From: Amoebophrya sp. A120
Lineage: Eukaryota; Protista; Dinoflagellata
Assembly (NCBI GenBank): GCA_905178155.1
Contig: CAJINV010000007.1
Coordinates: forward strand, 3,366,265-3,430,264
Direction of reading: 5' to 3'
DNA: 64,000 nucleotides
The position numbers were made by a program, and so were the translations under genes. This document shows, piece after piece, positions 4,201-39,685 of this stretch. The notes under the pieces were generated by a model that was given only the letters and a program-made list of their open reading frames with translations, was not told the origin of the DNA and searched no databases. Numbering within the stretch: position 1 is the stretch's first letter; each line of letters opens with the position of its first letter.

Positions 4201-6938
4201 CAACAGCATCGAGGAGTCCTCCTGCTGGAGCTGCACCAGAGGGGCAGAAGAAGGAATTAGCGTCACATGTCGCAGAGCAGACGAGCAGCGAAAATAAGCC
4301 ACAGACCACCTCCTCTCCGACAAGCACCACCGTTGGCGACTCCCCCACTGGCGCATTTCCTCGAACCCCTGTGAACGATTTGACCTGGAAATCTCTTTCG
4401 ACCCAACTGTTCAACAGCAAGGAGGCTGATCTGTCAGCGGCAACAGTCATCATCGAGCTCTACCATCGGGATCGGGATAGAAAGTTTGAGAGGGAGGCGA
4501 TTTACCACACGGCCGCGCTGGTCTTCGAGGAGTTGGAGAGGTTGGAGATAGGGAGCAAACCAACCGGGGCGACGTCGCAGATACTTGACGGCAGTGCGGT
4601 CGTACTCGGGAAGAAAAAGTCGAGTCTTCGTTTCTTCCGCTACGACATCAGCGAAAATTACGTCAGTCCGGAGATTTTCGGCGAGAAATACCATAAGCTA
4701 TTCGGGGAAACAAGTATCGGGAGGAAAACGGAAGCGACGGAGCAAGGGGCTGTGTTTTTGTTCCACGGAATTGAAAATACACCTGCAAGAACTGCTGGCG
4801 ATAGAAATACACTGACCACCGCCTCCAAAATAAATTCGCTGGCTTCACTTCGTCGCGGCCCCCCTGCTGTTTTTCCGCTTTCGTTTTCGGGGAAGGAGCC
4901 CAGAGCGCTGTTGGAAGGGTTGGTCAAGTGGATCCACAAGAAAACGACAACGTCCTCGTACCCAGCAACGGCATCAAGGGCTGCTTCAGCGAAAAATCAG
5001 CTTCGAGACGCGTTAGACCTCGTAAAGGATTTCGAACCTGAAATCCTTGCTCGGGCAAAAACGGCGGATGACAACGAAAGACGGCAAAAGAAAGAAAAAC
5101 AAGCGGCGATTGATAAGATGATGAAAACGCTGAAGCAAGAAAAGGGCTTGTACGACATCCGAGACAGTGCCTTCATGTCAGCGGCGAGCGGAAATGCAAA
5201 TGGTGCAGGAAGTGCTACTGGAGGAAGCGGAGGAGAACCAACTGAAACCAAAGCGCCCCCGCTGAAACAGTTCCGCGACCGTGGGGGAGTGAAGGACGAT
5301 AAAAAAGGAAAAAAGATGAAACCGAAAAAAGCGAGGAAACAAGGACCGACAAAACGCTCAAAGGAGCTGAGAGCCCGAGCTGCAGCTGCGGAACGGCGTG
5401 CAGAAGAAGCGATAGAGAAGCAGAAGAAGGGGAGGGAAGAAAAGCTGCAAAGACGCAAGGAGGTTGTAGCTTCGCCTTCGGCGGCTGCTCGTCATACTGT
5501 TCCATCTGCACCGAAGATCATGAAGAAAGATCATGTCGCTCCAGAAGAGATGATCCACACAGTTTCCTGGGGGCAGACGAAAGACACGTTGCACCTCACC
5601 CTGCACTTCTCTTCCAATTTCAAGTCCTGTGTGACAGAGCACCTTCTTAAACAGGGCGAGAAGAATAAGAACACGAACCCGCGCAAGTTTTTCGACGCTG
5701 TCACCGTGAAGATTGCGGAAGAGCAAGATGCTGTTGTAATAGAAGCGGAGTTAGACGACGACGAGGACGAGCAGGCAAGCGCAGCATCAGTTTCATCCCG
5801 GACCACGACTTTGTCTTGCGCTGGCAACAACATGACGCCTGTGGCCTTCCGCACGACGACCCGTCTCAACCTCCGAGAATTTGTCCGGAAAGAGACCCTC
5901 GAGCTTGCGTTTCAGGGCCAACAGACGAGAGACGCAACAGCTTCCACGTCAGTGACTGCACCAACCGCCACCGTCGAAGCGCAAGCGATTCTGACAGTGC
6001 GAAAGAAGATTCCGCACCGGTGGGACCGTTTGTTGGACACTTGCAGTGCGAAAAAGGGCAAGGCGTTTTTCGAAACAGCATGCAAGACTACAAGCTCCTT
6101 CCAGCGCCAGCACTCAGAAAAAAACTATAGGAGCAGTTCAACATCAATGCCTTTCCGGTTGAAAAAGGATTGGGTAAAGGAGGACCCGAATTTGGAGGAG
6201 GAGGAAGATGTGGAGCTCCCCAAATGCAAAGATTTGAAACCAATCACCGGGTCGCAGCTGGAGCTAATTTTCGAAAGAGGAAGCGCTGATCATGTTGCGA
6301 GGTCACAAATTTCAATTGCTGTTGCATGTCTTTTCGTAGGCGCATGGTTCTATGGTGAATGAGACGCTACGCCGCACGTCATCTGGTGCAGCAATTTGTG
6401 ACTGTGACACATTCATATTGCGAAAATTCAATTTGAAATAGAAACTCTTCTACAGGCCCTCAATCGCGTCGACGACAGCATTGCAGCCAAGCTCAAACGA
6501 GACAAGTTCCGAAAAATCCAGCGCCGTCTTCCCCCGCATGCTCGTTCTGTTAGTCCGTCACCCCTGGTGCCGTGCCTGTGAGGAAAAGGACCGGGAAATC
6601 GTGAACTTCGTGAAATGGAAATCCAGCGAACTGCCGGCCAATTTGGTGAAGTTCGCGGTCCTTGACGCCAGGGAGTACAAAAATGTGGCAAGTCGCTTTT
6701 TGCAGGACCATTCTGCTGCGTCCGCGGATGAAAATTTCAGCGGCGGAAATCTTCCCGTTCTTTCTGCCTGCGACGCCACCTGCCCTCTGCACGTCTTCAA
6801 GCGTGAGGAGGGGCTGGATAAGTTTTACGTCCTACCGGCGAAGAAGTGGCACGAGGAGTACTTGCTGGATATGTACCAGTATGCGGTGCCGCTCGTGACT
6901 CTGTTCAACCAGGAACTAAAGCAAGACGCTGAAGAAAA
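1233..6938 (+). CDS. 5' part of a large secretory-pathway thioredoxin/PDI-like protein with a CS(p23)-like domain (exons 1233-6301 and 6456-6938), interrupted by the retroelement
   Basis: 1709-aa ORF with an N-terminal hydrophobic segment and CS-like motifs (SWGQTKDTLHL...KKIPHRWDRL...KDW). Phase-2 GT-AG intron 6302-6455 joins an exon with the thioredoxin motif PWCRAC. The frame continues at 21205 after the element. Confidence 0.75.
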
Positions 6939-7058
6939 TTATGAGATCTAAGGTTTTCGTAAGGAAATAGTTGATCGTCAATTGTGGGAGTTGTCTATAG
7001 TCGGTTTCGTATCCGGGGCTGTGAGCATCCGGTCACCACACTCACACTCTGTTGAAAA
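6939..7058 (+). repeat. Split direct repeat A1 (120 bp)
   Basis: Matches 20751-20870 with 1 mismatch. Confidence 0.95.
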
Positions 7059-7389
7059 GCGACTTTCACGTTCGCCCTTCGGCTTTTGCCTTCGGCATTG
7101 TGGCAGCTCCTTTTCGCGTGTTTGGTCAGCAAACACTGCTCCGACTCGCCTCTCGTCGTCCCGGTTTCTTCACTTGTATGCTTGTTGATTGCGATGTCGT
7201 TGGGCGTTAGCATGTCCGCTGCGCACACACGACAGGGCAGTCGCTGGTGACAGTGCCAGCACCTCTCGCTCAGTTGTTGGACAGAGTACCTCATTGGTGG
7301 TAGCAGCACGTATGCATGTGAAGTCGTGTCCCGAACACACTTGGCGTAAGGCTGCCGCATGTATGTGTTCTATGGCTCTTGGCTAAGAC

Positions 7390-8188
7390 ATGGCATGCTG
7401 CGTGTTGATCTTGTCATCACACATGTTCACAAGGTTAGACATTCGTACTGCTTACCGGGATCATACGATGTCTGTTGCAAGAGCGAAAAAAGATCTTTTA
7501 GAGCTCTTACAGTTTTGCCGTGCGTCAGAGACAACAGTAATACGAGTCTGGTCGTCCAACAAGATGGTCGTCTCTCTGTCCGCAGCGGATCTTCCGCAGT
7601 TGCAACGCATTATGTCTGCTTGCTCTAACGACGTCTCGCTACACACCCCTGTGTGGTGTGCGCTGGTGTACGGCAGCCGCGCCCTGGAGTCGGTGGCCAA
7701 CATTGTGGAATCGCACGCTTTGCGCATGCAAGCAGCAGGTCCGAAGGTGGTCAACGAAGCGAATAATGACCCGATGACCACGGTTGCCGCCGTGGAGGCC
7801 ATGCGCCGCACAATTACTGAGTCTCACGACCTGACGGTGAGCACTTTGATGGTATGTTTTTTTCCTTTTGCGATACGCATGACTGCATGACGCTCGATGA
7901 TGCTGCATGATACAACCCATCAAATTGTCTCAGGAATCGGCGCAGACGGTGCTGCCGGGGACGAAACCCTGCGCCAAATTCAAGCAAATGCTCTGGGAAA
8001 TTCCAGTGGTGATCCCGCCGCAGTTCGCGGCCGCCAAGGCCTGGAGTCCCAAATTCAAGGAATGGGTCCACGGCACAGCCCCGATCCAGCAGACTGGTTT
8101 GGTGCGCCTGTTGATGGACCGCAACGTGGCGAAAATGTTCGAAGACGCGAGTGCTAGTGTTAGCACTACGAGTACTTCCGCAAGCTAA
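7390..8188 (+). CDS. Element accessory gene 1, unknown function (exons 7390-7851 and 7934-8188; ~238 aa; start uncertain)
   Basis: ORFs 7390 and 7907 are joined in phase 0 by GTATGT...CTCAG intron 7852-7933. Confidence 0.6.
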
Positions 8189-8436
8189 ATTTCCCACAGA
8201 TTCGTGTCGTTACAAGACGTATTTGTCTTTATGAATTAGACGAACCAGTCTAACTCTCAGGACAATTCCGAACACGAGTTCAACTATTTTGAAACTCTGA
8301 ACGCGAATTACTGGCACTACCATCTTGACCTTTCAACGTAATGGTGTTCGAGCTTTTCGTTTCTTTTGGTCGTGTTGTAGCTCACGCCGTTTCGCATAGA
8401 TTACTCTTGAGCCGCCGTGCAAGCCACAGCGAAATC

Positions 8437-11121
8437 ATGTCAAGATGCGTAATTTGTTACGACGACAGCGTGGTAGACGCTGGCAGGGAGCTATGGTGCA
8501 CAGAAGTCGCCTGTGCGAACAAGCACTGCATCTGCTCCACCTGCTACTCCAGCAAAGGAGGTGTCATCCTGATCGCCGAATTCGGAGCCTGGGGCCAGTC
8601 CACAAAGTGCGGCAAGTGCAAAGCATGTGACAGATCCAAGACAGTTGCGAACTCAGCAAAGGTAAAAGATAGAATCGACCAGCGAGCAGGAACTGCAGCC
8701 GTTACGGAGCAAGTCATCGCAGCTTTCCCTTGGTGCGCCCAATTCGCCGCTACGTCGGTAGAGAGAAAGGCGAAGTACTACGACATTCTGAAAAGGCCGC
8801 CGATACGCCGCTCCCAAAAGATTGAGAAAGATCAAGGAAAGTACATGATGAAGCTGCTCGGTCAGTGCCTGGCCAACACCAACCAAGCGGCTCAGGTACG
8901 CTTTTTTGCTTTGTAGCGCAACGGACTTTGATTGCCTAGTAAATACAGCATGACAAATTCTTCATTGTTATCACCACAGGACTTCATCGACAGCACAAAC
9001 ATGCAAGAGATTCCGAAGTGTTCGTGGAAGACGATGATTCTCCCGCCGGAGGGATCGCTGTTGGAACTCAAGCAATACTTGCAAACCTTGACTGACTTGT
9101 TTCCGTCCGAGGATTGGATCACTCTGGCCCGATATTTCTTGTGGCCCGTGACCTACTACGAAAAAAAGTCGGCCGCCCTGACCAAAAACTCCGTGGCCAA
9201 GAAGAGTTTGTCTTTGAATTACAATTATCAACTGTGCAGACATTTTCCTTTTCATGTTGCTCTCGTCTTGACACGTGATACGCAAGCAGATATCCATGCA
9301 GATCACCACATAACTCTCATGCGATTGTTTGCTAGGTAATCACAAAAATTACAAAAGCCAGGTATTTTCTCATCAAAGATTTTGCGGCCGCCCTCAAAAA
9401 GAAGTATCAGCCGGCCGATGGCTCGCAAATTTGCCGCCTAAAAGGCTGCCGATTTTTTTCTAATATTGTGGGCCCCACATTGTTCCGGCATGGCGCCCCC
9501 CTTGCTTCTTTTCGTCGTGGCCCCGCGAGTCTGGGGCCCCGAGGGTTCTGGAGGTAGTCCGGGCACGGGTTTTGTCGTCGGTAGTTTTTGCAGGTTTTGG
9601 AAGCTGGGGCGCTGGGGATTTGCGTTTTTAGCATTGTTTGGCGAAGATTGCCCGCCCCGGGGTCTCCAGGGCCCGGGGCGCATCCGGCCCGGGGTTGCCA
9701 AGGTTTGCGCCCCTGCGATGTTTGCGCCCCAGAAGGAAGGCAGCGCGATTGTTTTCCATTTGTCTCGGGCCGCACATCAATGGCCCCGGCCCGCCCGGCC
9801 GGGGTTCACGAGGGGCGCAGAAGTGGGGCGGGGGGGGGTCTAATTTGGGCTCTAATTTCGCGTCTAATTTGTTTCTAATTCCAGCATAGGGAATGTGGGG
9901 GGATTTGCAATGAAAAAAATTAGCCGTGATTTAGCCAGGAAATTAGGCGCGAAGTTAGTCGCTTGCCTTAGCATCGATTTAGGCAAGGAATTAGCCGGAG
10001 GCAAGAGGCGCCCCGCCCGGCCTGTTTCCGGCTAGGCGGTTGGTGTTGATCATTTTGCCGGGCGGCTTCCCGGCTTTTTGTGTGGGCGAATTGCCGCCAC
10101 CCCTAATCTTGCATCTCGCGCCTGACCCCCCCTCGGGGCCGCCTCCCTTCTGGGCCATTTTCTCTCTGGATGGGAAGAGCCCAGCGGCGTTCGGTATTTG
10201 GCCGCGAAGTTCTTGGCCCCGTTCGTTTTTGTTGTCCCGCCCAACGTGATTTCTGCCCGGTGGCCTTCGGGCTGGGTGTTGTCTTTGGCGGCATTGCCGC
10301 CACTTTCTTTTTTTTGTTTTCCTTCGTAACATTAGAAAAAAGATAGCAAGTTTTAAGCCTTGGAGAATGCCCGGGGTCGGCTGCCTGACAAGTACGTCGC
10401 GTCCGCGGTCGACGAGGCATTTTACAACCTCGAGTACGCCTGTGCAATGACGCAGGCGGCTTGCGATAATTTGTGCAAGCCCAGTATTATGCAGCGCATG
10501 ACGCAGATAGGCGGAAGCTTCATGTCGATGATCGCGGGAGGCGGCGGCAGGAACGCCTTCCCTGAGCTGGGACAGAACCCCACAGACAGCAACGCGATCC
10601 AGCAAAAGAGTCAGCAGCTGTACAACGAGATCAGCCGCATCATGACCGAGGCACCGCGCACCACCGCAGGAGCATACGCTGCGATGGAAACGGCGAAAGC
10701 CAAGAGCGACGCGATTCTGTCGCAGTGGATGCAGAAGACCCAGAGCTGTGTCAACTGCCTCATGGGCGGCAAGGGTCCAGGAAGCCACCATGTGGGAAAA
10801 AAGATGGGTTTGAAGGCCTGCTCAGACTCGAACAACACGCGCTACATCAAGTGCCCACGCCCGCAGTGCAACGGAGAAGCCCACTGGAACAAGAGCTGCC
10901 CGGTCGTCCTTGCAGGAAAGAACGGGGGTGGCAGCCAGCAGTTCGGTGGGAGCCAGCAGTTTGGTGGTAACCAAAATTTTCAAAAAGGTCTTGGTAGTAA
11001 TTTGCTCCGTCCGTTCAATGGAAATGGAGGTCAACCGTTTGCGAAAAGAACCAAAAACAACAATGGTGGAAAAGGGCGCAACATTTCTAACGTCACTACT
11101 TATGCCAACCCCTTCAACTGA
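8437..11121 (+). CDS. Gag-like protein with N-terminal C3HC4 RING finger and C-terminal Zn knuckle (exons 8437-8895, 8980-9205, 10358-11121; ~482 aa)
   Basis: CVIC-x18-C-x3-H-x2-CSTC-x21-CGKC RING pattern; CPRPQCNGEAHWNKSC knuckle followed by a Gly/Asn/Gln tail; GT-AG introns 8896-8979 (phase 0) and 9206-10357 (phase 1) keep the frame. Confidence 0.7.
9336..10357. other. GC-run-rich non-coding insert within the gag intron, with a central divergent CTAATT/AATTAG array; probable degenerate nested element
   Basis: Abrupt compositional shift to G/C and A/T homopolymer runs. CTA at 9840, 9852, 9864 and 9875, then TAG at 9921-9992 every 11-13 bp. Same design as 18260-19486, but no clear TIR/TSD. 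Confidence 0.5.
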
Positions 11122-11386
11122 CGAAGTAACCTGTTTCAATTTCTTTATCGATAAAAGAATACATGAGTCAAGGCAGATACAAGCGCCCCCTTTTCCATGG
11201 CGTCAATGTAGCTCGACGCCGACGGTGGCATGTTCTTTGAAGTTGTGTCACGCAGGAGAGATCATGGCAAGAGATTAGTGAGTCCTCACCTTTTCTTTTA
11301 TTTTCTTTCTTTCGTCTGTTGCCCGGTTCTTCCTGTTGTTGCGTCCGGAGTGCATTTTGGCACACACAGATCTTCCAGCAACCTCT

Positions 11387-13680
11387 ATGACAGCCTTAGT
11401 AGGTAGTCACTTCACGATGAGCAAATTAATTGCAAGTGATGCGATAAAAGACGCTCTTGGCCAAGAGGTCAGGCAGCGCGAGTTACACAAAATTGCTGAG
11501 CAAGCGGCGGTAGCAGCATCGCTGAAAGAATTAGCGAACGCTGAAAGGAAATCAAGCAAAAAGCCGATCGTCGCGCCACCACAAGCCGCACCTATCGCCC
11601 CCGCATCATCGAAGCGGAAAGCACCTGAGTACTACAGCGCTCTGATGGACGCGGTGGAGACAGAGTTAGTGTGTGTGGAGGACTGGCACGAGGAGGCTCT
11701 AGAGGATTTCAGCGCAATCGTGCCGTCGTCGGGATTCGTGACTGCCGCCTCCTCACCAGCGGCGGAGCATAAATTCGCGACAACGCTATTCGGAGTTACG
11801 GGAATACGCGAGCACATGGAATTACGGAAAGAGGCGCTGAAGAAACCGCTGGGCACACTAATGTGCATGAACGCCTGGGCAGATGTATCGCAGTGTAACT
11901 CCAGCGCATGCAATTCGTCGCAAGGAGCAGCAGCTGGCTCTGTGACGTCGTCGAGTTCAACTTCATCGAGTGCAACGTCGTCAAGCGACGCCACGTCCGA
12001 CTCCATCGCAATCATATCGAAACCGGGAAACATAGTGCTCACGACTCCCACGCCGTCGATAGCGAGTGTTTTACATTTTTACCAGCAAGCAAAAGGAAAA
12101 GCCGCAAAGAATTACACGCCAGTTTCGGAAGAAGGTCTCAAGATCGATTTTACAATAAAGGCCGCAAGCAGCGAGATGTTCGGTGCCTTCCCGCTTTCGG
12201 ACCAAGCAGCCCAGTTATTAGAATCGGCGACCGCGGACCACGCCAACTCCTCGATAACAGAGGGTACGTCGAGAAGCTACACATCGATCTTGTCGAAGGT
12301 GATCCCAGCCGTCGCGCGGGAATTAGGTTTCATTCTGTGGCCGATAACCACGGATGCCGAGGCAGCGCTGCTGTTCGTGACGTTCGCACATGTTCACTCG
12401 GTCCACAGCGCCTACAAGAATGAAGATTCGAATCGAATACGGTGGGGCGCTTTTTTACAATTGAGCGCGGCGATAAACGCCTTCAATTCCTCGAGAATCG
12501 AGTTAAGCGGCTACACCACGAAGAACAGAGGAGCTTTCTTCCAGAAGCTATGGAAAGGGTGCGTTTTATTTGTTTCTTGTCGCCAAAAGTTTGATGATGG
12601 TTTCTCTGAGCACAAATTGTTGGAACTTCGTCACGAGTCATCACATATTTCCACAACACAGGTTCAAAAAAGAAGCACACCACGGAGCCCCACTGGATGC
12701 GAAGTGGTGTCCGACGTCCACCGAGATGCTCGACGCCTACACGACCGAATGGGAGCATTGGCAGCGACACCACAAGCACATGGTAGACAGCGAAGGAGAT
12801 TTCCAGAAGAAAGTCTTGAGAAACATGTCGCGCAACGATATAGATCTAGTTTTACGACTTCAAAAATTAGCGATAGTTGTCGTAGCTTTCTTCTGTGTTA
12901 GACGGAGCGACGAGGTCAGACTGCTGCGGTTGCGTGATGTAACAATCACCGCGTCACCAGGGTCGGGGCCGCAGTGCGCAGTTTTCGTTTCTCAAGCAAA
13001 GAGCGACCAGCTCTCATTCGGCTCCCTCAGAAGCCTGGGTGCCAACGCATTTCACAAGAATGATAGCTGATTACCAGCGATTTGCCCGCGCCTTCTTTGA
13101 CATAGTACTAGGACGAAAAATGGCCCCCGCCGACGCCTTTTTCTTCGTCATAGGGAATGCGAACATTAAAACCAGGGGTGCGTTCAAATCTAGCAAAGAT
13201 GGTATTAGGAAAGACATCAAAGCCTTTTTCAGCTACGCCTTGCCAGGCACGGTCCCTGAAAAACCAATCTCGCTGCGCAAAGGGGGAGCAAAGCATTATA
13301 TCGAGCACGATGTCTCGCGACGTTTCGCTTATTATCAAGGCGGATGGAGGAACAGCTACTGTCTTGATGTGCACTACGCACCTATCTCGAGTATGGAACT
13401 AAGACAGATGGCAAACAGACACTCGTCCAAAAGCTTAGAAACCTATGCGAATATCGCAAGCCTGCGGGCACTTGACCGCGCCCACGCGATATATCTACAC
13501 GATGATGACGCGATCAAATTTTCGCGCGAGGTCGAGAAGGTGGCATGGGACAGAACCTCTTTAGAATCCTTCCAGGAGGAATGCCCCAGGCTTTTCTCTC
13601 ACGCCGCGTGCAGCTCTTGCGATGCGGCAGTGTACGGAAAAATTTTAGATTTTTTATCAAAATGCGACGAAGATTCATAA
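11387..13680 (+). CDS. Tyrosine recombinase of the retroelement (intron 12559-12661; frameshift near 13036-13039)
   Basis: Box I AFFCVRRSDEV, catalytic K in QAKSDQ, ISLRKGGA (HxxR box with H replaced), GGW and DVHYA nucleophile. The phase-2 GT-AG intron joins LWKG|FKKEAH. Confidence 0.85.
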
Positions 13681-13914: not shown

Positions 13915-15030
13915 ATGGAACGACCGCTAGGGCATTTGTCAGGATGGCGCTTCTGGTTCTTTGTGACCAAGGTGACCATGCAGAAATGCTGGTTGCTCTT
14001 ACAGCGTCTCAGCACCATACCGCAGTTAATGGCACGCGCAGTCTACGATGACGATAGAATGCTCGTGGACCATTTCTTCCGCAATTTCCGGTCCGCACAG
14101 CACTGGACTTTCCTGGCCAAGTTCTATACGGCAACCATACTGCGCGTGATGGTATTTCTAGTTCGATTACATAATTTACATGCATCTTTGGGCGCAGCGA
14201 AAGCCTTTTCATTAACAAATTCTCATGATCAAAATTAACAAGGTTCCGTATATTCTGATCGAAATCGGCATCATCGACGGGCAATCGCTGATGTGCGCAT
14301 GCATTTCTTATGCAGTAGTCCAGCGGGCGGAATCTTGTCGGTATTTGTTGTTATTACCAAACTTCAGGGACAATTAATAGCAATCCACATATCCTTCTAG
14401 TACCGAGCGCAAAAAATGGACCTAGGAAATCTCGACTATTGCGAAAAACTGCCGTTGCTTCGGCAGGCAAAGTCGATGCGATCCATGATCGATGATTTGA
14501 GTACGAAGGAGCAGAACAATTCCACCTTTTCGCAAGTTGTCGCTTCTTATCGCTGGTGCATGCGCAAAACCCTCCCCAAAAATTGTGACGCCAATGAGTT
14601 ACGCAACACCTGCGCCGTGCTGTTGGACACGCTGGAGGCAATTTGTGCCAAACAGAAGTGTCAAGCGAAATTAGCGGAGGGGATGGCGTCTGCGATTGAT
14701 TCGCTGTACAGCCACCTGTCGGAGATCTGGAATTATCCGGCCCAGGACGAGGCGATGATGGGCCGCAAATGGGCGTCTGTGCTCCTCGCGCGCCAGTTCG
14801 CCCACACCGCAGTGCAGATCTATCGCACCTACCACAAGCAGTCCTCCGCCGACATCGCGAACTTCTACAACCACGAGAAAAAGAAGTACAAAGAAGCCCG
14901 CTTGAAGCAGTTCAACTTGCGAAAGGAAGGAAAGGCTCTGCATGATGAGAAGAAGGAGGAATCCAAGAAAGAAGACTTGCAGAAGCCGTCTGAGGATGAT
15001 AGCTCATACCCGTCTTCGGATTCTGACTAA
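13915..15030 (+). CDS. Element accessory gene 2, unknown helical protein (exons 13915-14151 and 14401-15030; ~288 aa)
   Basis: ORFs 13915 and 14416 are joined in phase 0 by GTATTT...TTCTAG intron 14152-14400; charged C-terminus. Confidence 0.6.
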
Positions 15031-15432: not shown

Positions 15433-16001
15433 TGTGTGTCAGTCTCATCGTGGATTTCAAAAAAATTTGTTCATCTTGTAGAAACATTTGACTCAACAAG
15501 AACGGAAAATAGATAGACAAAAACACAGACGACAGAGGACCACGGCAGCAGGATTGTTCTTCTTTCGTTTTGATCACAATCTGTGCAAGAGCATCGGTTT
15601 TCAGTACTTTGCTGCGTCCTTTCCAATCGTCAGTGTCATTTTGATTGTCGTCGTCCGATCCCGCTACCGTCTATTCCAATAAGCTTCCCGCACAGTTTCA
15701 CAGATGTCATATACACATGTTTGGTTTGTAAGTGGGCGCAGGTGGCCTCACGAGCGAATATGTTACTTTCAGAAACTAGAGAGAATCGAGCGCAACTTCA
15801 TGTGCAACCTGAGGGGTTGCTCAGACGAGATTTTATGTGAAATACAATCAAACTGGCTACAAAAAAATGCGCACCTCCTCTCCACGTCCTCCGCGGACGC
15901 ACATGAAGGCCTAGCGGCAGCATGCGCAGACGCGAAATGTCATTTATCTAGGTTTCGGATTTTTGATCTGATTGAAAATGAGCGAAAAATGAGATAAAGA
16001 A

Positions 16002-19000
16002 ATGCGCTCGTCACCTCTCGTTATGTTTTGCGGGGTGCAAATAGGCCGCTCAGCAGCATTGCTGCGCGCACAAGATGCGCAGGACAAGAGAGCAACAAAA
16101 AGACACAAGACGCAGCACGCCTCCTTCTGCGGAGCCCAAATAGGAAAGCCACCAAAAGTAGCGGAGCCGGCACAAGAAATTCATCACTGGATAGCGCAAG
16201 AAAATGCGGCATCAATCATGAAAGATAAGCCGAGGCCATGCAAGAAGGATTCGCAGAAAGAATGCGACGCGTGCTGGGACGACCCCTCGCTGATCTTTCC
16301 GCAGGAAACAGTGGTGACATGGGGCAGCCACTTACCGCAGCCGGGAAAAGCGCCACGAAGCCATCAGTGCGACATCGACACCGTAGACCTGTCACGTCTG
16401 TTTACATGCGGGAATGAGTTCGGTGACCCTTTCAATTTCGCGCCGTGCTCCCCCTTCAAAAAAGAAGACTACGAGAAGGCGGGCGCACCTCTGACACGAG
16501 CAGCAGGCAGGAAACTGCTGCAAGACCAAGAGGGCCCGAGCGACAGGTGGCGCAAGGCCGAGGATGGCCAGGCGTTCGCGGGTCTAACGATAAACCCAGA
16601 AGAATGTGTACGGTTTGGACTACAGCCAGAAGTTTTGCTGAAAGCCTGCACGGGGATAAAGTTCCAACAAATCGCAGAGCACCTAGACCCGGTAGTATGC
16701 GAGAACTACCCGGCGGCCAAGCAGAGCCCGGAGGTCTACAGTAACGAGCTCAAGCGCTTCTTCGAGTGCAAAAAGATCATCCTGTACGATGTGAAATCAG
16801 AAAAGAACGACAAAGGCGAAAGTGTGGAAGTGTGCGACTACCCCAGCGACTTGACGCGCGTGCCAGGAAATCTGCTGTTCCAACGCGACGACAAGATCAG
16901 GGTAGTCAGCGACTACAGCAGCGAGTGGGCCCTGATAAGCCAGTCCATTTTTTCCACCGAAGTAAACTACAAGACCTACTGGGATATGTTTCTGCTGCTG
17001 AAGCCGAACTCCGTCGGGAGTGGTATCGACTTCATGGACTCCTTCGGCCACTGGTTGGCGCACGCACGTTTTCGCCGCATGCTTGGAATAAGTCTCGAAG
17101 GGACAGTACAAAAAGGAGGACATTTGTGCTGTCCTTTTGGCATCGGACCAGCACCGGGCGAAAGCGATTTCTTCGTGAAAGCATTTCTTGCTGCAGTGAA
17201 GAGAAACGGAGTATCGTCGCCAGCACTCGACTACGTAGACGACGTGAGATTTATAACCAGCCCGGTTGACGGCAAACCACACTTCGATAAAGCCAAGCTC
17301 GACCTCGGCCGAGCAGTGTACATACTTACCCGCATGGGCATCAAGATTCACCACAAGGAGTCGAAGCTAATACAGCCGTCGACAATTTTCCCCTGGCTGG
17401 GAAACGTTTTCAACACAGACCCGAGGTCGTGCAACATCATGCTCGAGCCCAAAAGGCGCAAGGAATACCTGCAAGCAGTGCGAGACTTCAAGCAGGCAGG
17501 CAGTAACAAAGAAGCGAAAGCCAGAGACGTAGCCAGCATCAAAGGAAAATTAGGTTCCTGCGCGCTCATCCACCCACGCGGGCCACTGGACGAGCTGAGC
17601 AAGTTGCTGGTAGCTTCAACAGCACCGAAGCAGTGGGCGAAGCTGAGCAGGCAGCTCAATCCGCCAGTTGAAATCTCGGACGCCGCTTTCGAAGACTTGG
17701 ATTTGTGGGAAGACCTGCTGTCGACCGACCACACAAGACAAATGCTCTTCAACGGCGAGCAGACCTTTATTTGGTCTCGTGAAGTCTTGGCCTTCGGAAA
17801 AGCCTTTTTCGCGTCGTTGGGGCCAGAGCTGTTTATCGGTGTTTACATGGACGCAGCAAAAGGCGACATCGAAAACTGCGAAGACCGAAGAAACAGAGGC
17901 TGGGGCGGCACCGTAGCGGACCACTATTTTCGCGGACTCTTCGATCGACGAAAAAGTGCCAGATACCGCCAGCATCAACGAGCTAGAGGCCTTGACAGTT
18001 CAGCACGTGCTAGACGCGGCCAGAGAGAAGTTAGGAGACGCATATTTTCACCAGAAAATAATCCTGATCAAAACCGACAATCCAACGGCAAAAAGAACCA
18101 CGAACAAGGGCTCCGCGGCAACACCGATTCTCAAGAACGTGACGAAAAGCTTGACATCCTTCGCTTCCAGCACAGGCACAGAAATAGTCGCAGCCAAGAT
18201 CGCGGGCGAAGTGAACATCATCGCCGACGCCCTGTCACGCCACGAAGAGCATTTATTTGTCAGTCAGAGAGCCCCCGGGCCGCGGGAGGCACTAAATCCC
18301 AGCTAATTTTTGCGGGATTTCCCCGAAGCCCATAGGTTGGGCGGTGGTTTTCTTCCCCGGGCGTTGAAGGCCCCCGGGCCCGCTGGGTTCCTCCCTTTTC
18401 CGCAGCTCCCGGGGACCCGGGTTTTTCGCAAAGCCCCCGCTGACCCGGCGTGCTTTTTTCAATGAAAAGGCATGGCGGGAATTAAAATTTAAAAATTCGG
18501 GCCGTTTGCAGGGGATTCGGAATTTCGAACGCCGCGGGGGCTTCTTTGGTATTTTCGTCCCCGGGTGGCCCCGAAGGTGGTGGGTAGCGCTCGCGGTCTG
18601 GCTTTCCTGGGGGCCCTCGGGCTTTCGGATTGGGCTGTGAAGACCCCAGCCGTGTGGCCAATGTTGAAATCCCTCCGCCCTATCATTGCTTCACTTTTTC
18701 GCAAAGCCATTGTCGTTTGGCTTTTCGAAAGCACCGCCAGGGTTCCCAGTTTTCTCGTGTTCTATTTTGGACTTCTAAATGTGCTCGCTGTTTTGTTTTC
18801 TATTTTTCTGCGGGATTCGCGTGTTCGGCAGCTGTCTTTTCATCTTCTATTTTTCGCGACACTGGAGATTTCCAAAGGAAATCCTCCAAAGCGCGAATTT
18901 AGAAGTTGAAAAACAGCCGCTCGAGCATGCGAATCCCGCAAAAAATAGAAAGCAAAATAGAAGCACGATTTAGAAACCAAAATAGAATACGATTTAGAGC

Positions 19001-20529
19001 CCCGATTTAGAACATGGAAATAGAATACGATTTAGAGCACGAAAATAGAATACGACTTAGAAGCAAAAATAGAACCCAAAAATAGAAACAAAAATAGAAC
19101 CAAAATTAGCCGGGGAATTAGCAGCGAAAATAGCCGCCCGCGGGGGCTGTTTCGTGTGGGTGTAACTGGGTGGGGTTTCCGATGGTTGATGTTGTTTTTC
19201 GGGCGGCTTTGGGATTTGGGATTTTGGCTTGTGGGAATTCGTCCTGTGTGAGATTGCCGCCCCTGCCATACTCCATGTGCAGAAGGTGGCCTGCTTCCCA
19301 TTGGGTGCTTTTTGTTTTCCTGAAGTTCCTTGCCTGATTGCTTTGGGATCTTATGTGGCGCAACTTGGGCGCTCGGTTTTCCGGGTTTGGGTCTTCACCC
19401 ATTGTCCCGGGTCTCGGGGTTTGAAAAAATCCCGCAGAAATTAGCTGGAAATTAGCGGCCGCCACCGCCCCGGGGTTTCTGGCTGATATTTGCGTTTAAA
19501 GATCCTTTTCCGGATAAAACTTTGCGCAAGCGCTCGTGGAGCATTGTGATGCGCGAGATACCGGGTTTGAATGTCGACTGTTTTGCAGATCACCACAACT
19601 GGCGTTTCCCGGAATACTACACTGCGCACAATCATCCGCTCGATAGCTTCGACGTGTTTTATAACAAACGTTCGTGGTGGTTCCCACCAATACGCCTTGC
19701 AATAGTAGCAGCGCGCTTCCTCGCCAACTTCCAAAAGATTCCAGTAGCTCAAAGACCACGCTTTGCGCTGATGCTGCCGATGATCAGCCCCATGTTCTAC
19801 GACCTAGCGTCCAACTTCGTGCAGTTCTGCACGTACAAAAAGGGTTCCAAGGTGTTTTGCGCAGCGCAGTGCCCACTCGTGTACGGAGCACACGAAGACT
19901 GGATGTTGTTGTTGTCTGTGCATCTACACGACTGGGGAAGAGACAGAGAAAAGACAGAAATAGGCGCGCAAGTTACAAAAATTTTACGCAGGCCTTACTT
20001 TCGTCAATTTCCCGAGCTCGCTAGGAGCAAGTTAAGAATTATGGATATTTGCTATGCGCGCGAGCGGTTTATAGTCCACAACACATGCTGCGTCCCGTGC
20101 AAGCCCAGCGGTTTGGCGGCACAGCTGTTTGCAAAATATCCGAAGGCAAACCGCTACGGGGAGCCGTTTTCTGCGAAACCACTAGGAGGATATGAAGTGA
20201 TAGGAAAAATTGTCAATATTTACGCTATGGTCTGGCCAGGAAAACCCGTCCTCAACAGAGTCCCACGACCATCAGACGTAGTACCGGTAGAAGCATTTAC
20301 AGCAGACGACTCAGCAGAAGCTCGTCTTTTTCGTTTCAAAAACGCGTTGCGCGACTTTATTTTGTCAATCATAGACGAGACAGAATCAGTAGCAATCCCG
20401 CTCAGAATTGGACAAGGCTCATGCGCAGGAGGACAAAAAGAATACTGCGCAGTGATCGCCAAAGCCATCGACGTCGCATTTCGAAACAATGTAGACGCCA
20501 GCATTTATGAGAAGCCGCGCGCTCTATAA
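16002..20529 (+). pseudogene. pol: reverse transcriptase - RNase H - DNA N6-adenine methyltransferase-like - macrodomain; disrupted by a 4-bp duplication (17941-17948) and a nested insertion (18260-19486)
   Basis: RT motifs GIDFMDSF, CPFG, YVDD, WLG. RNase H motifs YMDAA, INELEAL, KTDN, NIIADALSR. MT motifs VDCFAD...WFPP...LMLP. Macro motifs IVHNTCC...GLAAQLFAKYP...VAIPLRIGQGSCAGG. Confidence 0.85.
18260..19486. mobile_element. Nested non-autonomous TIR element (1,227 bp) with 6-bp TSD TATTTG
   Basis: Imperfect ~60-bp TIRs (TCAGTCAGA...CTAAATCCCAGCTAATTTTTGCGGGATTT vs AAATCCCGCAGAAATTAGCTGGAAATTAG...TCTGGCTGA). TATTTG at 18254-18259 and 19487-19492. Removal restores HLFAFKDPFPDKTLRKRSW in frame. 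Confidence 0.85.
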
Positions 20530-20570: not shown

Positions 20571-20750
20571 GCGCCCAAACTACACGTTTGTAGCATGTGC
20601 TCTGTTCTAGTCCTAGCTGGAAAACGCAGATCACTTCAAGATCAAGACCTCGTGGGTCATTCGGTCTAGATCGCGTGTGTGTGTGTCGGGTACTGAGCTT
20701 GTGCGGTCGCTCAGCAAAATAATTACGAAACCTTTGCTCTACGACAACAA
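20571..20750 (+). repeat. Split direct repeat B1 (180 bp)
   Basis: Matches 21025-21204 with 3 mismatches; directly abuts A2. Confidence 0.95.
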
Positions 20751-20870
20751 TTATGAGATCTAAGGTTTTCGTAAGGAAATAGTTGATCGTCAATTGTGGG
20801 AGTTGTCTATAGTCGGTTTCGTATCCGGGGCTGTGAGCATCCGGTCACCACACTCACATTCTGTTGAAAA
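20751..20870 (+). repeat. Split direct repeat A2 (120 bp)
   Basis: Copy of 6939-7058; B1|A2 reproduces the end-to-start (circle) junction. Confidence 0.95.
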
Positions 20871-21024
20871 CCCACCCACCCGCACCAAACTGTGTCGGCT
20901 CTGGGCAGTGTTCTATGAAACAATTCGGTCGTTTCGTTCATCACGAAAAGACTATAGATAGCTCCCACGATTTTTGTATAAATCGTTCAAGCCACTACCC
21001 GTTCACACCAGAGCATATCCATGC

Positions 21025-21204
21025 GCGCCCAAACTACACGTTTGTAGCATGTGCTCTGTTCTAGTCCTATCTGGAAAACACAGATCACTTCAAGATCAAG
21101 ACCTCGTGGGTCACTCGGTCTAGATCGCGTGTGTGTGTGTCGGGTACTGAGCTTGTGCGGTCGCTCAGCAAAATAATTACGAAACCTTTGCTCTACGACA
21201 ACAA
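21025..21204 (+). repeat. Split direct repeat B2 (180 bp), right end of the element
   Basis: Copy of 20571-20750, followed immediately by host coding sequence. Confidence 0.95.
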
Positions 21205-23700
21205 CTTTAATCGGGAAAAGGCGTTCCACCAGTGGCGAACCGCTTTTCACACTGGCATTGTGGCGTACTTCCCGCCCGGGGTGGTGGATCTGGATGAGAA
21301 GGATATCCAAGCAAATACAACCGACGTGAAAGCTCATGATATTGCAGCGCAGAATGGCACGGTGATTGAAGGGGGAAAGAACACCATCAATACAACAAGC
21401 AGCGCAACAAGAACGTCACCGCTGTGGGAGAAAAGCGCCAACACGATTTGGTTAGATTTCCTAACTACCGCTCGCGCGCTCCGCGGAAAAGCACTGTTCA
21501 GTGCGACGAACGACTTGCGGATGGTGCACAATGCCGCTGAAGGCAATGAAATGAATGCTGTTGCTGACGGAACGGCAACGGCATCAAGTCCTCGTGATTC
21601 AGTTTCATCATCGCACGATGAAACAAGTCGCCAAGTCCAAATCTACGTTTTCAAGTCGGCCGAGAACCGTGCGGTAAAGTACCCGACTCCGGAACAACTA
21701 ACCGCAGAGAAGCTGACCGAGTTCAGCAAAAGACTCGCAGTTCCGCTCGTCTCCAACTTTGATTTTCACTCCAGGCAACAGTTAGCAGAGTTGAAAATGC
21801 CCATTGGGCTCCTCTGGGTGCAGAATCAGGACGAAAACATTGATACAGCTCTTGCCAAACAGGAACTGGAGCGGAAAGGAGGGTCAGCAAAGAAAGTCAA
21901 TGACAACTACACCGGAGCTGCATCGTCCGGCAGCGTTTCGGAAGATGACAGTGGCGAAGAGATGAACTACCGCAGCGAGGAAGAGGATGTAGATGAAACT
22001 ACCACCGCCGTTGAGATCGTCGAGAAACTGGCGCGGAAATTCGAGGGCAAGATGGCATTCGCGAAGTTAAATGTGACGACCGAGGGCATTTACATGCGGG
22101 AATTCGGGTTTCACCCGGCGAGATCCCTTCCAGCGTTCGGAATTGTCAACACCGTCGACGCGCTGACAGGCGGTGCTCCAGGAGGAATGCAAGGAATGCC
22201 GGGGTTGGAAGGTACAGCCTGATTGCTCGTGTAGTGGTCCGGCGGTTGTACTTACCTCCGCTTTTCCTTTTTTCGTCTCTTTGACAGCTTGCACTACAAA
22301 ACTTAATTTTTTGTCTAAGAAGCAAGCTTGCACTACACTGTCTCTTTGACAGTGAGATCAAGATGTTTTACTATTCATAAGGAGGGAACGAAGGGGACCT
22401 ACAGGCACGAATCTTGTTCGAAATCTACATCTCACAAGGCACGAAGTCCTCGCTCGCTTTGGACGGCGGAGCCCGCTACGCGTTTGCAGAACGGGTGACA
22501 CAGGGTTCGGAACAGAAGTTGGCCCAGTTCGTCGACACCTACTTGCACGACCAGCAGAAGCTCTCAAAGGCTTTTCGCACGAACGAGCTGTCGGCGAAGT
22601 ACGAATGGCTGGCGAATCGGGGACAGGTCCAGGAAACGGTGTGGAGCCGACTGTGGGAAGATTTGGGATGGTGGAGCGAAACCAAAAAAGACTCTCATGT
22701 CCTCTTCGAGCTCTACGCGCCGAACCGTCCGCAACACTCTACCCACATGCTGCTGGTGAATTTGCTTGCTGTCGCGCTGAAGAAGGTGCAAGGGTTCAAA
22801 ATTGTGCGAATGGACACGGAAAACAATCACGTGCCAGAGGAATTCAAGAAGCCTTCTTTCGCATCAAGTTCATCTAGCAAGAATAAGCATCTGAGGTCTG
22901 AGAAACAGCACAACTCAGCGCCCGGAGCAAACATTTTCGACACCGCGAGCGGACAGGCTCCTGCAGCAACGGAATACTTCTTCCTCGATACGAAGGCAAG
23001 GAAGGTTACACGCTTCAAGAGTTTCCAAAGCGCGAAATTGCTCGATTTGCCGGTGAAGTTATTGCAGTTCGTGAAAACGCAGCTGGAGAAGGGAGTAGAA
23101 GGCTTGGAAAGAACTGCACATGTGCAACAGGATGAAACTGCAGAGACGGAAGATGAAAAAGAGACGAGCAAGATCGCTGAAATAAACGAAGAACCGTCAA
23201 AATTTGCGAGTGGAAATGCTGCTCATGTTGCTCGTGCGCAAGTAGAGGAACTTTCCACCGCAGATTACGAGGAACGTGAGGAGGCGGACGAGCACCGCGA
23301 GGTGGACGAGCCACGGTTACTGACATCAAACCCCATGATGATCGGGTCTACTTCAGGGGCTGTAGCTATGCTATCTCCTTCCTCTCTTTTTTCTGAACAC
23401 GGCCACTTCAAACCCGAGCCCCTCCCGGTCGTCTTCAGTGCCGCAAAAGAGTTTGTGAAACGGGAAGTCCGCGAGAAGGTGCGGAAAATGAAGCGGATCG
23501 AGCGGGAGCGAGAGAAGAAACACCACGAAGCCTGGGCGCAGTACGAAATCGAGGAGTTTTTACGGTACGAGAGGAAAGGATACGACTTACACGGAGCCGC
23601 TGGGATGGCCGGGTCGTTGGGGAATCTAGCTGCAGGAATGGGTGGGGGGAAAAATGGAGGTGGTGGTGGCGGGGGCGGCGGGAGAAAATCTAAAGATTGA
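21205..23700 (+). CDS. 3' part of the thioredoxin/PDI-like host gene (exons 21205-22211 and 22382-23700)
   Basis: PDI b'-like segments (EKLARKFEGKMAFAKLN...REFG...LPAFGI; LFELYAP...IVRMDTENNHVP) resemble repeats in the 5' part. Phase-1 GT-AG intron 22212-22381. Confidence 0.75.
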
Positions 23701-36300: not shown

Positions 36301-39300
36301 CTCGCGCCATCGCCCTGACCGCTGCGAAGCAACGCGAACTCGCCTCGCGGCAGCGCGAAGCGACGGAGCGGCTCGCGCTGCCGATAGCGCACCAGACCAA
36401 GCGACTCCAGCTCGGGACCACCACGGATTCGCGCCCCGGAACACCCGCCTGGGTGAGTAATCTCGTGAAGACCTCGCGAACCCGCGAGGAGGCCGCGCGC
36501 CGGGGCGTGGCACCCTCGCCGCCGAACGGTCGGCGGAAGAAATGGGACGAAAGCAGCCGGGTGGGCGGAAACAAAAAGAGAAAATACCCGCCCGGAACGC
36601 CTGGCGGAAGGTGCAGGTCGAGCGGACGGAGTGGCTACGGTTTTTCAAACGCGGAAAGGAGCCGGACGCCGACGTATTCAGGGTCGAGGATTGTCAATTC
36701 CGCTGGTGCTGCGATGAATAGCCGGGGTTTCACGTTTTACTCCGTTGATGCCAGCCCGAAAAGTCAACATTTTGGTGGCGAATACTACAACCAAATCGCT
36801 TCAGGTAACAAACTCCGACTGTGTTGTTTTTGTCGTGCGATTTCTTGCCACGTTATTGCGTACATTTTCAGGTTTTCATAATTTCCTTTTGTAGACTGCA
36901 TGAATGATTTCGAGTCATCTTTATTTCTATCGTCATTACGTTTACCTTGTTTACCTTTACGTACAAACTAAACCCAGACAACGCCTACTGGGTGCCTACC
37001 GCGGAAGAGAAGCGGCGGCAGGTCGCCTGGGAGAGGCACCACGCAGCGGAAGAGTCTGCGCGCAAGCGTGAAGAGGAGAGGAACGAGAAAATTGCTGAGT
37101 TGCTCAAGAACCTCGCGATTCACGGGGAAAGCGTGCGGCCAAAGCTTCCGCTCGAAAACGACATCAAAGTGGATGACGTTGGGGCGGAGGATGAGCTGGA
37201 TGAGGTAAAAATCAAAGTGCTCATAGTACAATGATCATGTTCATCATAATTGTTTTCTGGCAACATAGGCATGACCTCTAGATCAGCTGCATCATCTGTG
37301 TGATGCTCGACTGTGCCTCTGCTCTTGAAATGACACATACGTCTCATTCAGGCCGAGCAAGAGCGCATCCGGAGCAAAGTCCCCGCGCCGGCCCCACTTG
37401 ACGTCGAAGTGACACCCGACGACGAAGGAGACAATGGCACCACGGTGAAACCCCAAGCGACTACAGAGACGGCGGAAGTTGGTGCGAAAGCGGAGTCAAC
37501 CACAGAAAGCACTGCCACTGCGCATCAGCCACAGGAAGCCAAAATGAACCCAGAAGATGCGATTACCCCGAAGCCCATGGGCCTGCAGGAGAAACAAGTC
37601 ATCCGGAACCGCTTGCAGGAGGAGCTCCGAGCGTTGGAAGCGGGCGCGAGGGGGGATCAGCAGGACGAGAAGATGAAAGTAGGAAAAAATAACGCCGGCA
37701 AGAAAGAGATGAAATCAATGTCTTCATCGAAGGAGGGAAAAAAATCATCTTCCTCGTGTGATGAAGTTGAAGAGTCCGGAGATCATTCCGGGGTGAACAC
37801 CTACTCGTCTGAGTTCCTGTCAGAAGACAAGACAGAACAGGAGGGGCCTTCAGATAGAGATACAAAACTTAAGCAACAAAATCAAAGTGTTGCTCCTGCT
37901 GCTGACGCAGGTACTCTTGACAAGGAGAAAAAGACGAAAAAGGAGGTTGTAAAGGCGCAAGATAAAAAGCCGTCGTCCAGCAGTAGTTCGTGCTCGCCCG
38001 GATACACGACGCCGGAGGAAGATGAGGATGAAGCTTCGTCAGATTCGTCGCAGAGTTCTTCGTCGTCACCAATAAACCCGGACGAAGATGAAGGACCGGC
38101 GGACGAGAAGAGAACGTCGAAAACGAAAAACACCAAGCTTGGGTCGCCAAGCATTCTCCCGGAGAACGTGCATCGACACCAAATCGCGGCGGTCGAAGAT
38201 CTGGTGGCCCAAGCACGACTGCGGGCAAAGCAAAAAGCGGAGCAGCAATCATCGACAGACACGTTGAGCAGAGCAGGTTGGGAGATTTTTTGGATTCTTG
38301 TTTCTGTGTCACGTGGTGCAACATGAACATGATCGTGTTGAGAATTTTTTTAATATCAGCTTTTGCGTGCTCCTACTCCTTCAATCTCTGGTCCTGATAG
38401 ATCGCATTCATAATTGACGTTTTATTTTCCAGGTCCTGAAGACAAGGACGATGACGACGAGCAGCATGAGAGCAGTGCCACGACGAAGGGGGAGAACGAC
38501 GACGAGACCGAGGAGAAACCGCACGAGATTCCCCTGTACTGTAGATTTCTGCAGCCAACTGACCCGATCTACATGCAGTCGAAGGCGTTCGATCCCAATT
38601 CGGTATTTTTGCTTGGGTCTTGTCTCCATCTGTGTTCTTGTCGATTATGTTCAGTCTTCTCGACTACTACAAGCAGCCAGTTCTTTCTGATGTTGTCCCT
38701 GTCATGCATCATTGCGAAATCTTATCGTTGTATGTATTCTTTGACTTGCCAGTACCAGTACTTACGCATGTACACTACATGTTCTGCAACTGCAACTCGG
38801 GATGTTGAACGCTACGCCCCTTGTAAAAAAACCGAACCCGCACCAGGTCCCCGCCACGTCGCTGATGAAGCTGCTGAATCAGTCTGGCACCTGGTACCAC
38901 GAGGATCCCTTCGACCAACCGCCGAAGGATACCCGTTGTCTGTGCCGGGATTTGAACGAATCATTTATCTGGGTGGAAGACGACCTTCCGGATTCAGATG
39001 ACGGTGCGGAGCACGGCGAATACCCCGAGGGCTTGCCGCCGGGTATGAGTCCCGAAGAGTACGAGGAGATGATGCGCATGCTATCAAATGTATAAATGTC
39101 TGGGTCTGGAAGAATGGAAGGCTTGTCATGCTTGTCTGGCATGACCCATGATGCTTGTAATGCATGACCCAGCATGACAGATTTTTGGAAAGCTTCCTGA
39201 TGCCATTTCCGCATGACAAATTCCCTCCTCGCGTAGCACAAATGTGGCTCCTCTTGCTGGTCATGCAATACAGATTTTTTTAGAGTCCAAAGTTAGCATC

Positions 39301-39685
39301 ACAAGTTCCAACTTTCCAGACCCAGACATTTTTACATTTGATACATGCAGTACTACCACGAAATGGAGCAGCGCGGGATGGTATCAAATGTAAAAATGTC
39401 TGGGTCTGGAAGATTCCGGAATTTGTGATGCATCTTTCGTATGATCCACGACGCATGTAATGCATGATCTAGCATACAGATTTTTAGAGGGCTTGCTGAT
39501 GCCTATTCCGCATGAGAAATGCCCTCTCCGCGTAACACAAACTGGAGGCCTGTTGCTGGTCACGCAATACAGATTTTTTTGGAATCCAAAGACAGCATGA
39601 CAAGTTGCAATCTTCCAGCCCCAGACATTTTTGCAATCCATAGATGGGGGTCGGCGGGCCGCCCAGGCGCGCGGTGAGTTTCTAA
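33326..39685 (+). CDS. Large low-complexity hypothetical protein (~8 exons)
   Basis: In-phase GT-AG introns 36186-36300, 36805-36977, 37205-37351 and 38277-38432; an ambiguous intron at ~38587-38812; two introners at 39082 and 39382. Confidence 0.65.
39082..39343. mobile_element. Introner, family 1 (TIR TATCAAATGTA...), 5-bp direct repeat CATGC
   Basis: Long TIRs; CATGC at 39077-39081 and 39344-39348; removal gives MRMQYYH in frame. Confidence 0.9.
39382..39642. mobile_element. Introner, family 1, 5-bp direct repeat GATGG
   Basis: Same TIR; GATGG at 39377-39381 and 39643-39647; removal gives QRGMGVGG in frame. Confidence 0.88.

Follow-up and report, generated by a model that had tools for sequence, protein, structure and literature searches.

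A probably captured macrodomain with replaced catalytic positions in the predicted Pol of a DIRS-order retrotransposon from Amoebophrya sp. A120

Macrodomains of the ALC1 class comprise both readers and erasers (PMC7050489), and catalysis across the class is varied, relying on a lysine, a glutamine or a backbone water (PMC7050489, PMC9411070). One member, SCO6735, reverses thymidine ADP-ribosylation: its Gln85 corresponds to Lys80 of DarG and Lys84 of TARG1 and is positioned by Asn27; activity is lost in the mutant Q85A and nearly lost in N27S (passages of PMC9411070). Capture of macrodomains by retroelements is already known, and fish epsilon-like endogenous retroviruses encode one (Basta 2009 as cited in PMC4977317). 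Like the element described here, these viruses are reverse-transcribing and carry a macrodomain, but they use an integrase, and their macrodomain is described as an additional ORF, unlike the Pol domain reported below. What appears new is the DIRS order: no macrodomain in an element of this order was found in our search of the openly accessible literature, and no macrodomain passage was found in a review of retrotransposon accessory domains (PMC6338049), in PMC6681497 or in PMC12440569.

The window, by which we mean the whole 64,000-nucleotide stretch of Amoebophrya sp. A120 DNA analysed here, contains a tyrosine-recombinase retrotransposon of 14,266 bases (14.3 kb; 12.0 kb without its insertions); for DIRS1-like elements, lengths below 6 kb are quoted. 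The features of the element, and of the host gene that it interrupts, are as follows.

6939..7063, + strand: split direct repeat A1, left element end (repeat family D5, 98% to A2; repeat match 6937-7063)
9400..10387, no strand: 988-bp insertion with TCAG...CTGA ends (X1 contig joint 9399 to 10388, short side 255)
10388..11121, + strand: part of a Gag-like ORF, with motifs at 10747-10899 that we take to be Cys/His zinc knuckles
11282..12901, + strand: 539-codon extra ORF that runs into the recombinase frame
12507..13680, + strand: putative tyrosine recombinase in two frames, which we presume from the motifs RRSDE, QAKSDQ, ISLRKGGA, GGW and VHYA
14401..15030, + strand: extra ORF of 209 aa, of no convincing family (antiholin match below cut-off)
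15993..17843, + strand: reverse transcriptase (RT), from the motifs IDFMDSF (17025), CPFG (17130) and YVDD (17232); no Pfam match
17844..18253, + strand: RNase H (RH), from motifs and HHalign (YMDAA at 17844 in the RT frame; SINELEAL, KTDN and ADALSR in the +1 frame)
18254..19486, no strand: 1233-bp insertion bounded by imperfect terminal inverted repeats (TCAG...CTGA), with a direct repeat of 6 bp
19487..20025, + strand: putative DIRS-type methyltransferase (MT), from the motifs DCFA (19576) and WFPP (19678), with linker, in the macrodomain frame
20026..20529, + strand: macrodomain of the ALC1-like class, SCO6735/Bt_1257/Poa1p-like subfamily, predicted C-terminal domain of Pol (profile, AF2 model, fold searches)
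20029-20046, + strand: macro motif KLRIMD
20077-20091, + strand: macro motif HNTCC
20215-20232, + strand: macro motif NIYAMV
20407-20433, + strand: macro motif IGQGSCAGG
20571..20750, + strand: split direct repeat B1 (repeat family D2, 98% to B2)
20749..20875, + strand: split direct repeat A2 (repeat family D5)
21025..21204, + strand: split direct repeat B2, right element end (repeat family D2)
21205..22222, + strand: downstream part of a host thioredoxin-fold gene (Pfam Thioredoxin_6, E 8e-13)

Split direct repeats are the pattern of PAT, Ngaro and VIPER elements (passages of PMC4157794 and PMC6681497), and we regard the element as PAT-like because the combination of a putative methyltransferase with split repeats fits that group (PMC3266345). 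With PAT-like elements (PMC3266345, PMC4157794 and PMC6681497) it shares the A1-B1-A2-B2 repeats and the lack of a target-site duplication and, as far as the motifs show, a putative RT-RH-MT order and a zinc-knuckle-like gag motif; it differs from them in having the putative recombinase upstream of pol, extra ORFs, intron-like segments and a C-terminal macrodomain. Both element ends and the B1/A2 junction have AA in common. An RT and an RNase H with DIRS motifs are present in the predicted frames. Of six pol motifs listed for DIRS1-like elements (three rows of supplement file 2 of PMC3266345), five recur here in the tabulated sequence, and P-x-W is missing. The putative MT, which agrees in its xFPP motif and its position but lacks P-x-W, had no match in the Atlas or the PDB and no support from library profiles; its phage matches stand at E 0.3 and lead to a hypothetical protein, and its single-sequence model (pLDDT 42) is unusable. 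In the putative recombinase, read by eye, the His of H-x-x-R is replaced, and no match was found for it in the libraries scanned. The upstream part of the host thioredoxin-fold (PDI-like) gene, 6442-6938, ends at 6938, the frames of the gene agree on both sides of the element, and there is no target-site duplication; no empty-site joint at this gene was seen in X1 or X3.

Several observations concern the remainder of the element. Two GT...AG intron-like segments lie in its 5' region (7852-7933 and 8896-8979), introns being unusual in a retrotransposon, and a Cys-rich, RING-like ORF stands beside them at 8329-8916. The two extra ORFs (11282-12901 and 14401-15030), neither assigned to a family, bring the element to about twice the usual DIRS length. 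Over A2, spacer and B2 (20750-21204) the X1 depth is about twice that of the element body and the X3 depth is by far the highest, and other letters precede 20750; together this suggests short solo A-B copies, like the SIRE of VIPER (passages of PMC6681497).

Both insertions have identical TCAG...CTGA ends, flanking repeats of 5-6 bp and a depth above that of the element, while their interiors are unrelated. That they might be stretches of poor sequence was considered and rejected, as the repeats, depth and joints show insertions. The one at 9400-10387 is absent from another copy (an X1 contig with a 255-letter side); the one at 18254-19486 has a depth of about 197 and resembles a MITE or an introner-like element. 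Repeat-bounded inserts such as these resemble the introner elements described in the genus Amoebophrya (passages of PMC7789003) and might be spliced out. More families of short, introner-like inverted repeats occur in the window at 39082-39643, 44594-44899, 48428-48848 and 60294-60534.

The insertion at 18254-19486 splits the RNase H from the MT, and the RNase H is itself divided by a +1 shift close to the A5 run at 17951, so that in the window copy the macrodomain frame is discontinuous with that of RT and RNase H. The 1233 bp are exactly 411 codons, however, and leave the frame unchanged, such that the +1 part of the RNase H, the MT and the macrodomain have frames identical modulo 3. A single X1 contig joins 18253 to 19487 and skips exactly 18254-19486, with unknown letters between; its short side has 24 letters, below the 31-letter standard of the method. 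For the family as a whole, a predicted RT-RH-MT-macro fusion is well inferred from the frame arithmetic, the 6-bp duplication and this one contig joint, and an intact full-length Pol with this C-terminal macrodomain occurred in 0 of 345 candidates. Another copy is without 4 nt at 13022, which makes the recombinase frameshift particular to the window copy. With two insertions and two frameshifts, the window copy is probably dead. From 24-28 on the flanks, depth rises to mostly 57-89 over the element; with the proviso that depth is no copy number, this suggests that the element is present in a few copies. Of ten listed runs, four were aligned to the window. Three short contigs from X3, the RNA nature of which is a guess, lie over MT and macrodomain, and the raw RNA runs X8 and X9 gave 1 and 0 reads on the window, too few for an expression test. 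X3 record 11 (19564-19791) is one low-depth contig in which a run of T precedes 19564; an antisense RNA with its poly(A) end there could account for it.

The initial annotation of this DNA placed a macrodomain of the Poa1p/TARG1/DarG class at the end of pol in an element of the DIRS order, and this reading stands: the motifs lie in one ORF and the fold is matched. That ORF (19456-20529, + strand) runs for 357 codons without a stop, which has a chance of about 5e-8 given the base composition, and includes all macro motifs quoted above, with DCFA (19576) and WFPP (19678) upstream of them in an identical frame. The Met at 20041 is not the start of a separate macrodomain gene, since the first strand of the fold (20029-20040) precedes it. 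Structure prediction followed by Foldseek on the last ~165 aa, the check that had been proposed, yielded a confident AF2 model (pLDDT 91, pTM 0.87) with a macro fold, for which DarG was the best match (E 1.3e-6, TM 0.66/0.73). In VIA, Bt_1257, DarG, Poa1p and SCO6735 were tied within 1 at Z 14.0-14.8, superposing at rmsd 2.5-2.9 over 131-141 residues. In the Atlas, 27 of 30 matches fell into Macro-bearing clusters (score 0.94), in which Pfam Macro is annotated on only 10-27% of members. Direct scans with the last 162-170 residues returned nothing useful from Pfam, PHROGs (E 0.21), NCBIfam or PADLOC, nor did searches of PDB sequences and annotated phages with the macro or MT-macro frame; matches of these frames to KDO8P-synthase were dismissed as chance.

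An HMMER search with the domain found 150 proteins at E <=1e-3, and 127 of these homologues, together with the window domain, form alignment A1, which omits 23 long or fragmentary matches. Among solved structures the A1 profile had 27 matching sequences, with Bt_1257, SCO6735, DarG and Poa1p in the lead; the best profile matches are the ALC1-like hydrolases SCO6735 (5E3B) and Bt_1257 (2FG1/2AFC), at E 1e-13 to 4e-10. Membership of the ALC1-like class, with the minimal alpha/beta macro fold, is confirmed at the level of the predicted model. SCO6735 and Bt_1257 are free-standing, whereas the window domain is fused to a retrotransposon Pol. DarG (5M3I, 5M3E), TARG1 (4J5S) and Poa1p (6LFQ series) have the same minimal fold (Z 12.9-14.5), but the window domain is without a catalytic lysine and the element without a cognate DarT-like gene; the domain had no match to DarG in PADLOC or NCBIfam.

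Aligning the A1 profile with PDB 5E3B, with positions counted by hand, places Q71 of the family at Gln85 of SCO6735 and N24 at Asn27. Relative to SCO6735, the window domain has Met for Gln85 (20227) and Cys for Asn27 (20086), and has lost the Cys and the Trp of the phosphate loop. The first position is Gln in 126/126 homologues and Met in 0/126; the second is Asn in 118/126 and Cys in 4, and P0002 (Yihiella) and P0007 (Polarella) have the Cys there. Elsewhere Gln22 is replaced by Asn (Gln in 124/126), Gly9 by Met (Gly in 94/126) and, within the phosphate loop, Cys133 and Trp140 by Gln (Cys and Trp each in 122/126), with Ala136 also changed (Ala in 117/126). An extra residue in this loop was considered and discarded, the alignments showing substitutions only. 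The variable loop has 32 residues, against a median of 17. Retained are Asp10, His21, Pro42, Tyr47, Gly57, Pro74-Gly75, Arg103, Phe107, Pro128, Gly132, Gly134, Gly138 and Tyr143, and the equivalents of SCO6735 His24, Gly126 and Gly128 are kept at 20077, 20410 and 20416. The catalytic lysine of DarG and TARG1 (Lys80/Lys84) is absent from the window domain, the equivalent site being the Met. Judged from these alignments, the window domain is without the Gln85 and Asn27 that SCO6735-type hydrolases require. The active de-ADP-ribosylating counter-defence enzyme that the initial annotation envisaged is not supported, given a Met and a Cys at the key sites and the absence of the DarG/TARG1 lysine.

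Only one close protein was found, P0001, which is labelled Amoebophrya sp. A120 and is 97% identical over the C-terminal 100 aa; the domain is present in this related copy. P0001 covers only this half of the domain, not the N-terminal one, and has the Met and the altered phosphate loop as in the window; the macrodomain family of the element is thus known from two sequences only. Over these 100 residues 3 differ, where 9-11 would be expected of a copy at about 5% divergence under neutrality (P 0.02-0.005, a test which assumes that P0001 is such a copy). No ingroup branch is longer than that of the window domain (3.97; median 1.37), and this length, together with the intact core and the open frame, suggests that the fold stayed under selection once the known chemistry was lost. 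No close relatives were found in viral contigs, metagenome contigs or longer proteins.

The initial annotation called for a survey of further fusions. Among 6747 candidate proteins of 488-2000 residues, a profile search found 27 matches, 2 of them with RVT_1. Besides the Pol of the window, two DIRS-type Pol proteins, so called from their protein motifs, carry the subfamily. P0173 falls into a nine-member cluster, of which the longest protein, P0190 (1382 aa), has the order macrodomain, RT, RNase H and degenerate MT-like tail; in P0173/P0190 the motifs QQCNC, NMLAQ and IGCGLAGGDW are all intact. P0186 is partial and begins with the C-terminal part of a macrodomain, followed by RT and RNase H. 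The window RNase H matches those of P0190/P0192/P0186 (HHalign probability 63%, E 6.9e-5), while the RTs of P0173/P0190 and P0186 gave no BLAST match to the window RT. Searches for the DNA that flanks P0190 and P0186 found none. The macrodomain lies before the RT in P0173/P0190 and behind the MT in the window, and the P0173 loop has 17 residues against 32, which suggests separate captures; in an AU test, a clade of the window domain with P0173 was not rejected (p 0.14). Overall, these sequences suggest repeated capture of the macrodomain by DIRS-type Pol. This extends macrodomain capture from integrase-using retroelements to the DIRS order, across three Pol sequences that look unrelated and no fewer than two positions of the domain.

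The link to viruses drawn in the initial annotation is upheld insofar as large DNA viruses often carry the subfamily, which occurs in 46 IMG/VR loci (L002-L047), many of them on contigs of 150-500 kb and two of them from giant-virus assemblies. P0002, P0007 and P0168 (Effrenium) and these viral loci share the subfamily of the window domain; the dinoflagellate and large-virus macrodomains keep the Gln and the canonical loop, unlike the window domain. P0002 is also its best non-self match (E 1.1e-11, 39%), and a long variable loop is common to 11/12 dinoflagellate-group proteins, against 9/126 rows of A1. Neither a quick tree of 149 rows nor a careful one of 42 hand-picked rows put the window domain with the dinoflagellate group or with the viral macrodomains, while a clade with 12 rows of this group was not rejected in an AU test (p 0.30). 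No RT, RH, MT or tyrosine recombinase was matched among the 150 nearest proteins or in the 46 viral loci. Giant viruses, phages and dinoflagellate proteins that combine an ADP-ribosyltransferase-like (ART) domain with a macrodomain all carry the subfamily and are candidate donors, and capture from the host is plausible.

The reading we tentatively prefer, at a little under even confidence, is that of a captured ALC1-class macrodomain with its catalytic positions replaced, which would serve as a non-cutting ADP-ribose binder on Pol. It is taken as non-cutting because the Gln85 and Asn27 equivalents are replaced while structural residues are retained. Intact copies would make a single RT-RH-MT-macro polypeptide; an ancestor would have acquired the macrodomain as an active hydrolase, the lineage would then have lost the chemistry with the fold kept, and the domain would now probably dock Pol and cDNA on ADP-ribosylated chromatin, or shield ADP-ribose marks. 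A dead enzyme in the same Pol has a precedent, in that MT domains of DIRS elements are described as likely inactive (passages of PMC4738411). Against a binder, the changes extend to the adenine-side Gly and the phosphate loop and could have abolished binding, which is one of the arguments for an alternative that we consider improbable, namely that the domain no longer serves ADP-ribose biology and that Pol retains it to bind nucleic acids or proteins. In its favour, residues on the adenine side (Gly), at the distal ribose and in the phosphate loop have changed together while the core stays, and the variable loop is long (32 residues against the median of 17); against it, such a module has no known partner, and Asp10 and both loop glycines are kept. 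Equally, the varied catalysis of the class, the kept His21 and the Cys of P0002 and P0007 make another chemistry possible. An eraser with changed chemistry, which would remove ADP-ribose from the single-stranded cDNA, RNA or proteins of the element as counter-defence by means of the retained His and backbone waters, is in our view unlikely. His23 of Poa1p has a catalytic role. The window domain has kept His21, where Poa1p also has a His (title of the H23A entry), along with the Gly126/Gly128 equivalents; its best fold matches are active hydrolases, and P0173/P0190 bear the domain with intact motifs on a DIRS-type Pol. Furthermore, the cDNA of DIRS elements is single-stranded (PMC7192593) and DarT modifies thymines in ssDNA (passages of PMC7050489). 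Set against this, neither Gln nor Lys occupies the main catalytic site, the Asn is replaced, and the Met is found in none of the 126 homologues. No transferase is known to act on retroelement cDNA in this host.

That the macrodomain is a decaying passenger, a gene acquired behind the MT that has no role, would fit a broken window copy with its two insertions and two frameshifts, the few copies, and the lack of relatives with the same arrangement in viral contigs, metagenome contigs and longer proteins. We nevertheless hold it to be quite improbable: the branch is very long, yet structural residues and frame are intact, the amino-acid differences to P0001 are few, and other DIRS-type Pol proteins hold the subfamily. 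Returning to the preferred non-cutting binder, the window family and P0190 would form a matched pair of a naturally blunted and an intact domain. As DIRS cDNA is single-stranded and this macrodomain class reverses thymidine ADP-ribosylation on ssDNA, the pair makes DNA ADP-ribosylation against retrotransposons in eukaryotes testable. At its most speculative, and with very little probability attached, the argument would run that DIRS elements repeatedly captured SCO6735-class macrodomains as protist hosts ADP-ribosylate single-stranded cDNA, that dinoflagellate ART-macro proteins are a eukaryotic DarTG-like restriction system, and that the elements answer with erasers or, here, with decoy binders.

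The wider subfamily is found in further combinations. P0002, P0007, P0072, P0168 and P0176 are dinoflagellate-type proteins with a PARP-like ART and a macrodomain, some with a RING/Deltex C-terminal domain, in which case writer, eraser and ubiquitin ligase stand together in one chain; the PARP-like domain of the dinoflagellate proteins is weak (Pfam E ~0.002, below cut-off). In 7 of the 27 long matches (the P0162-P0167, P0171, P0174, P0175 group) the subfamily is joined to a uracil-DNA glycosylase; the proteins probably come from large DNA viruses, and the fusion points to a role in DNA repair there. The remaining long matches are fusions to RING/Deltex, PIF1, RNase H, RNA cyclase and others. 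P0006, of 917 aa, has three tandem macrodomain copies, some with degenerate motifs.
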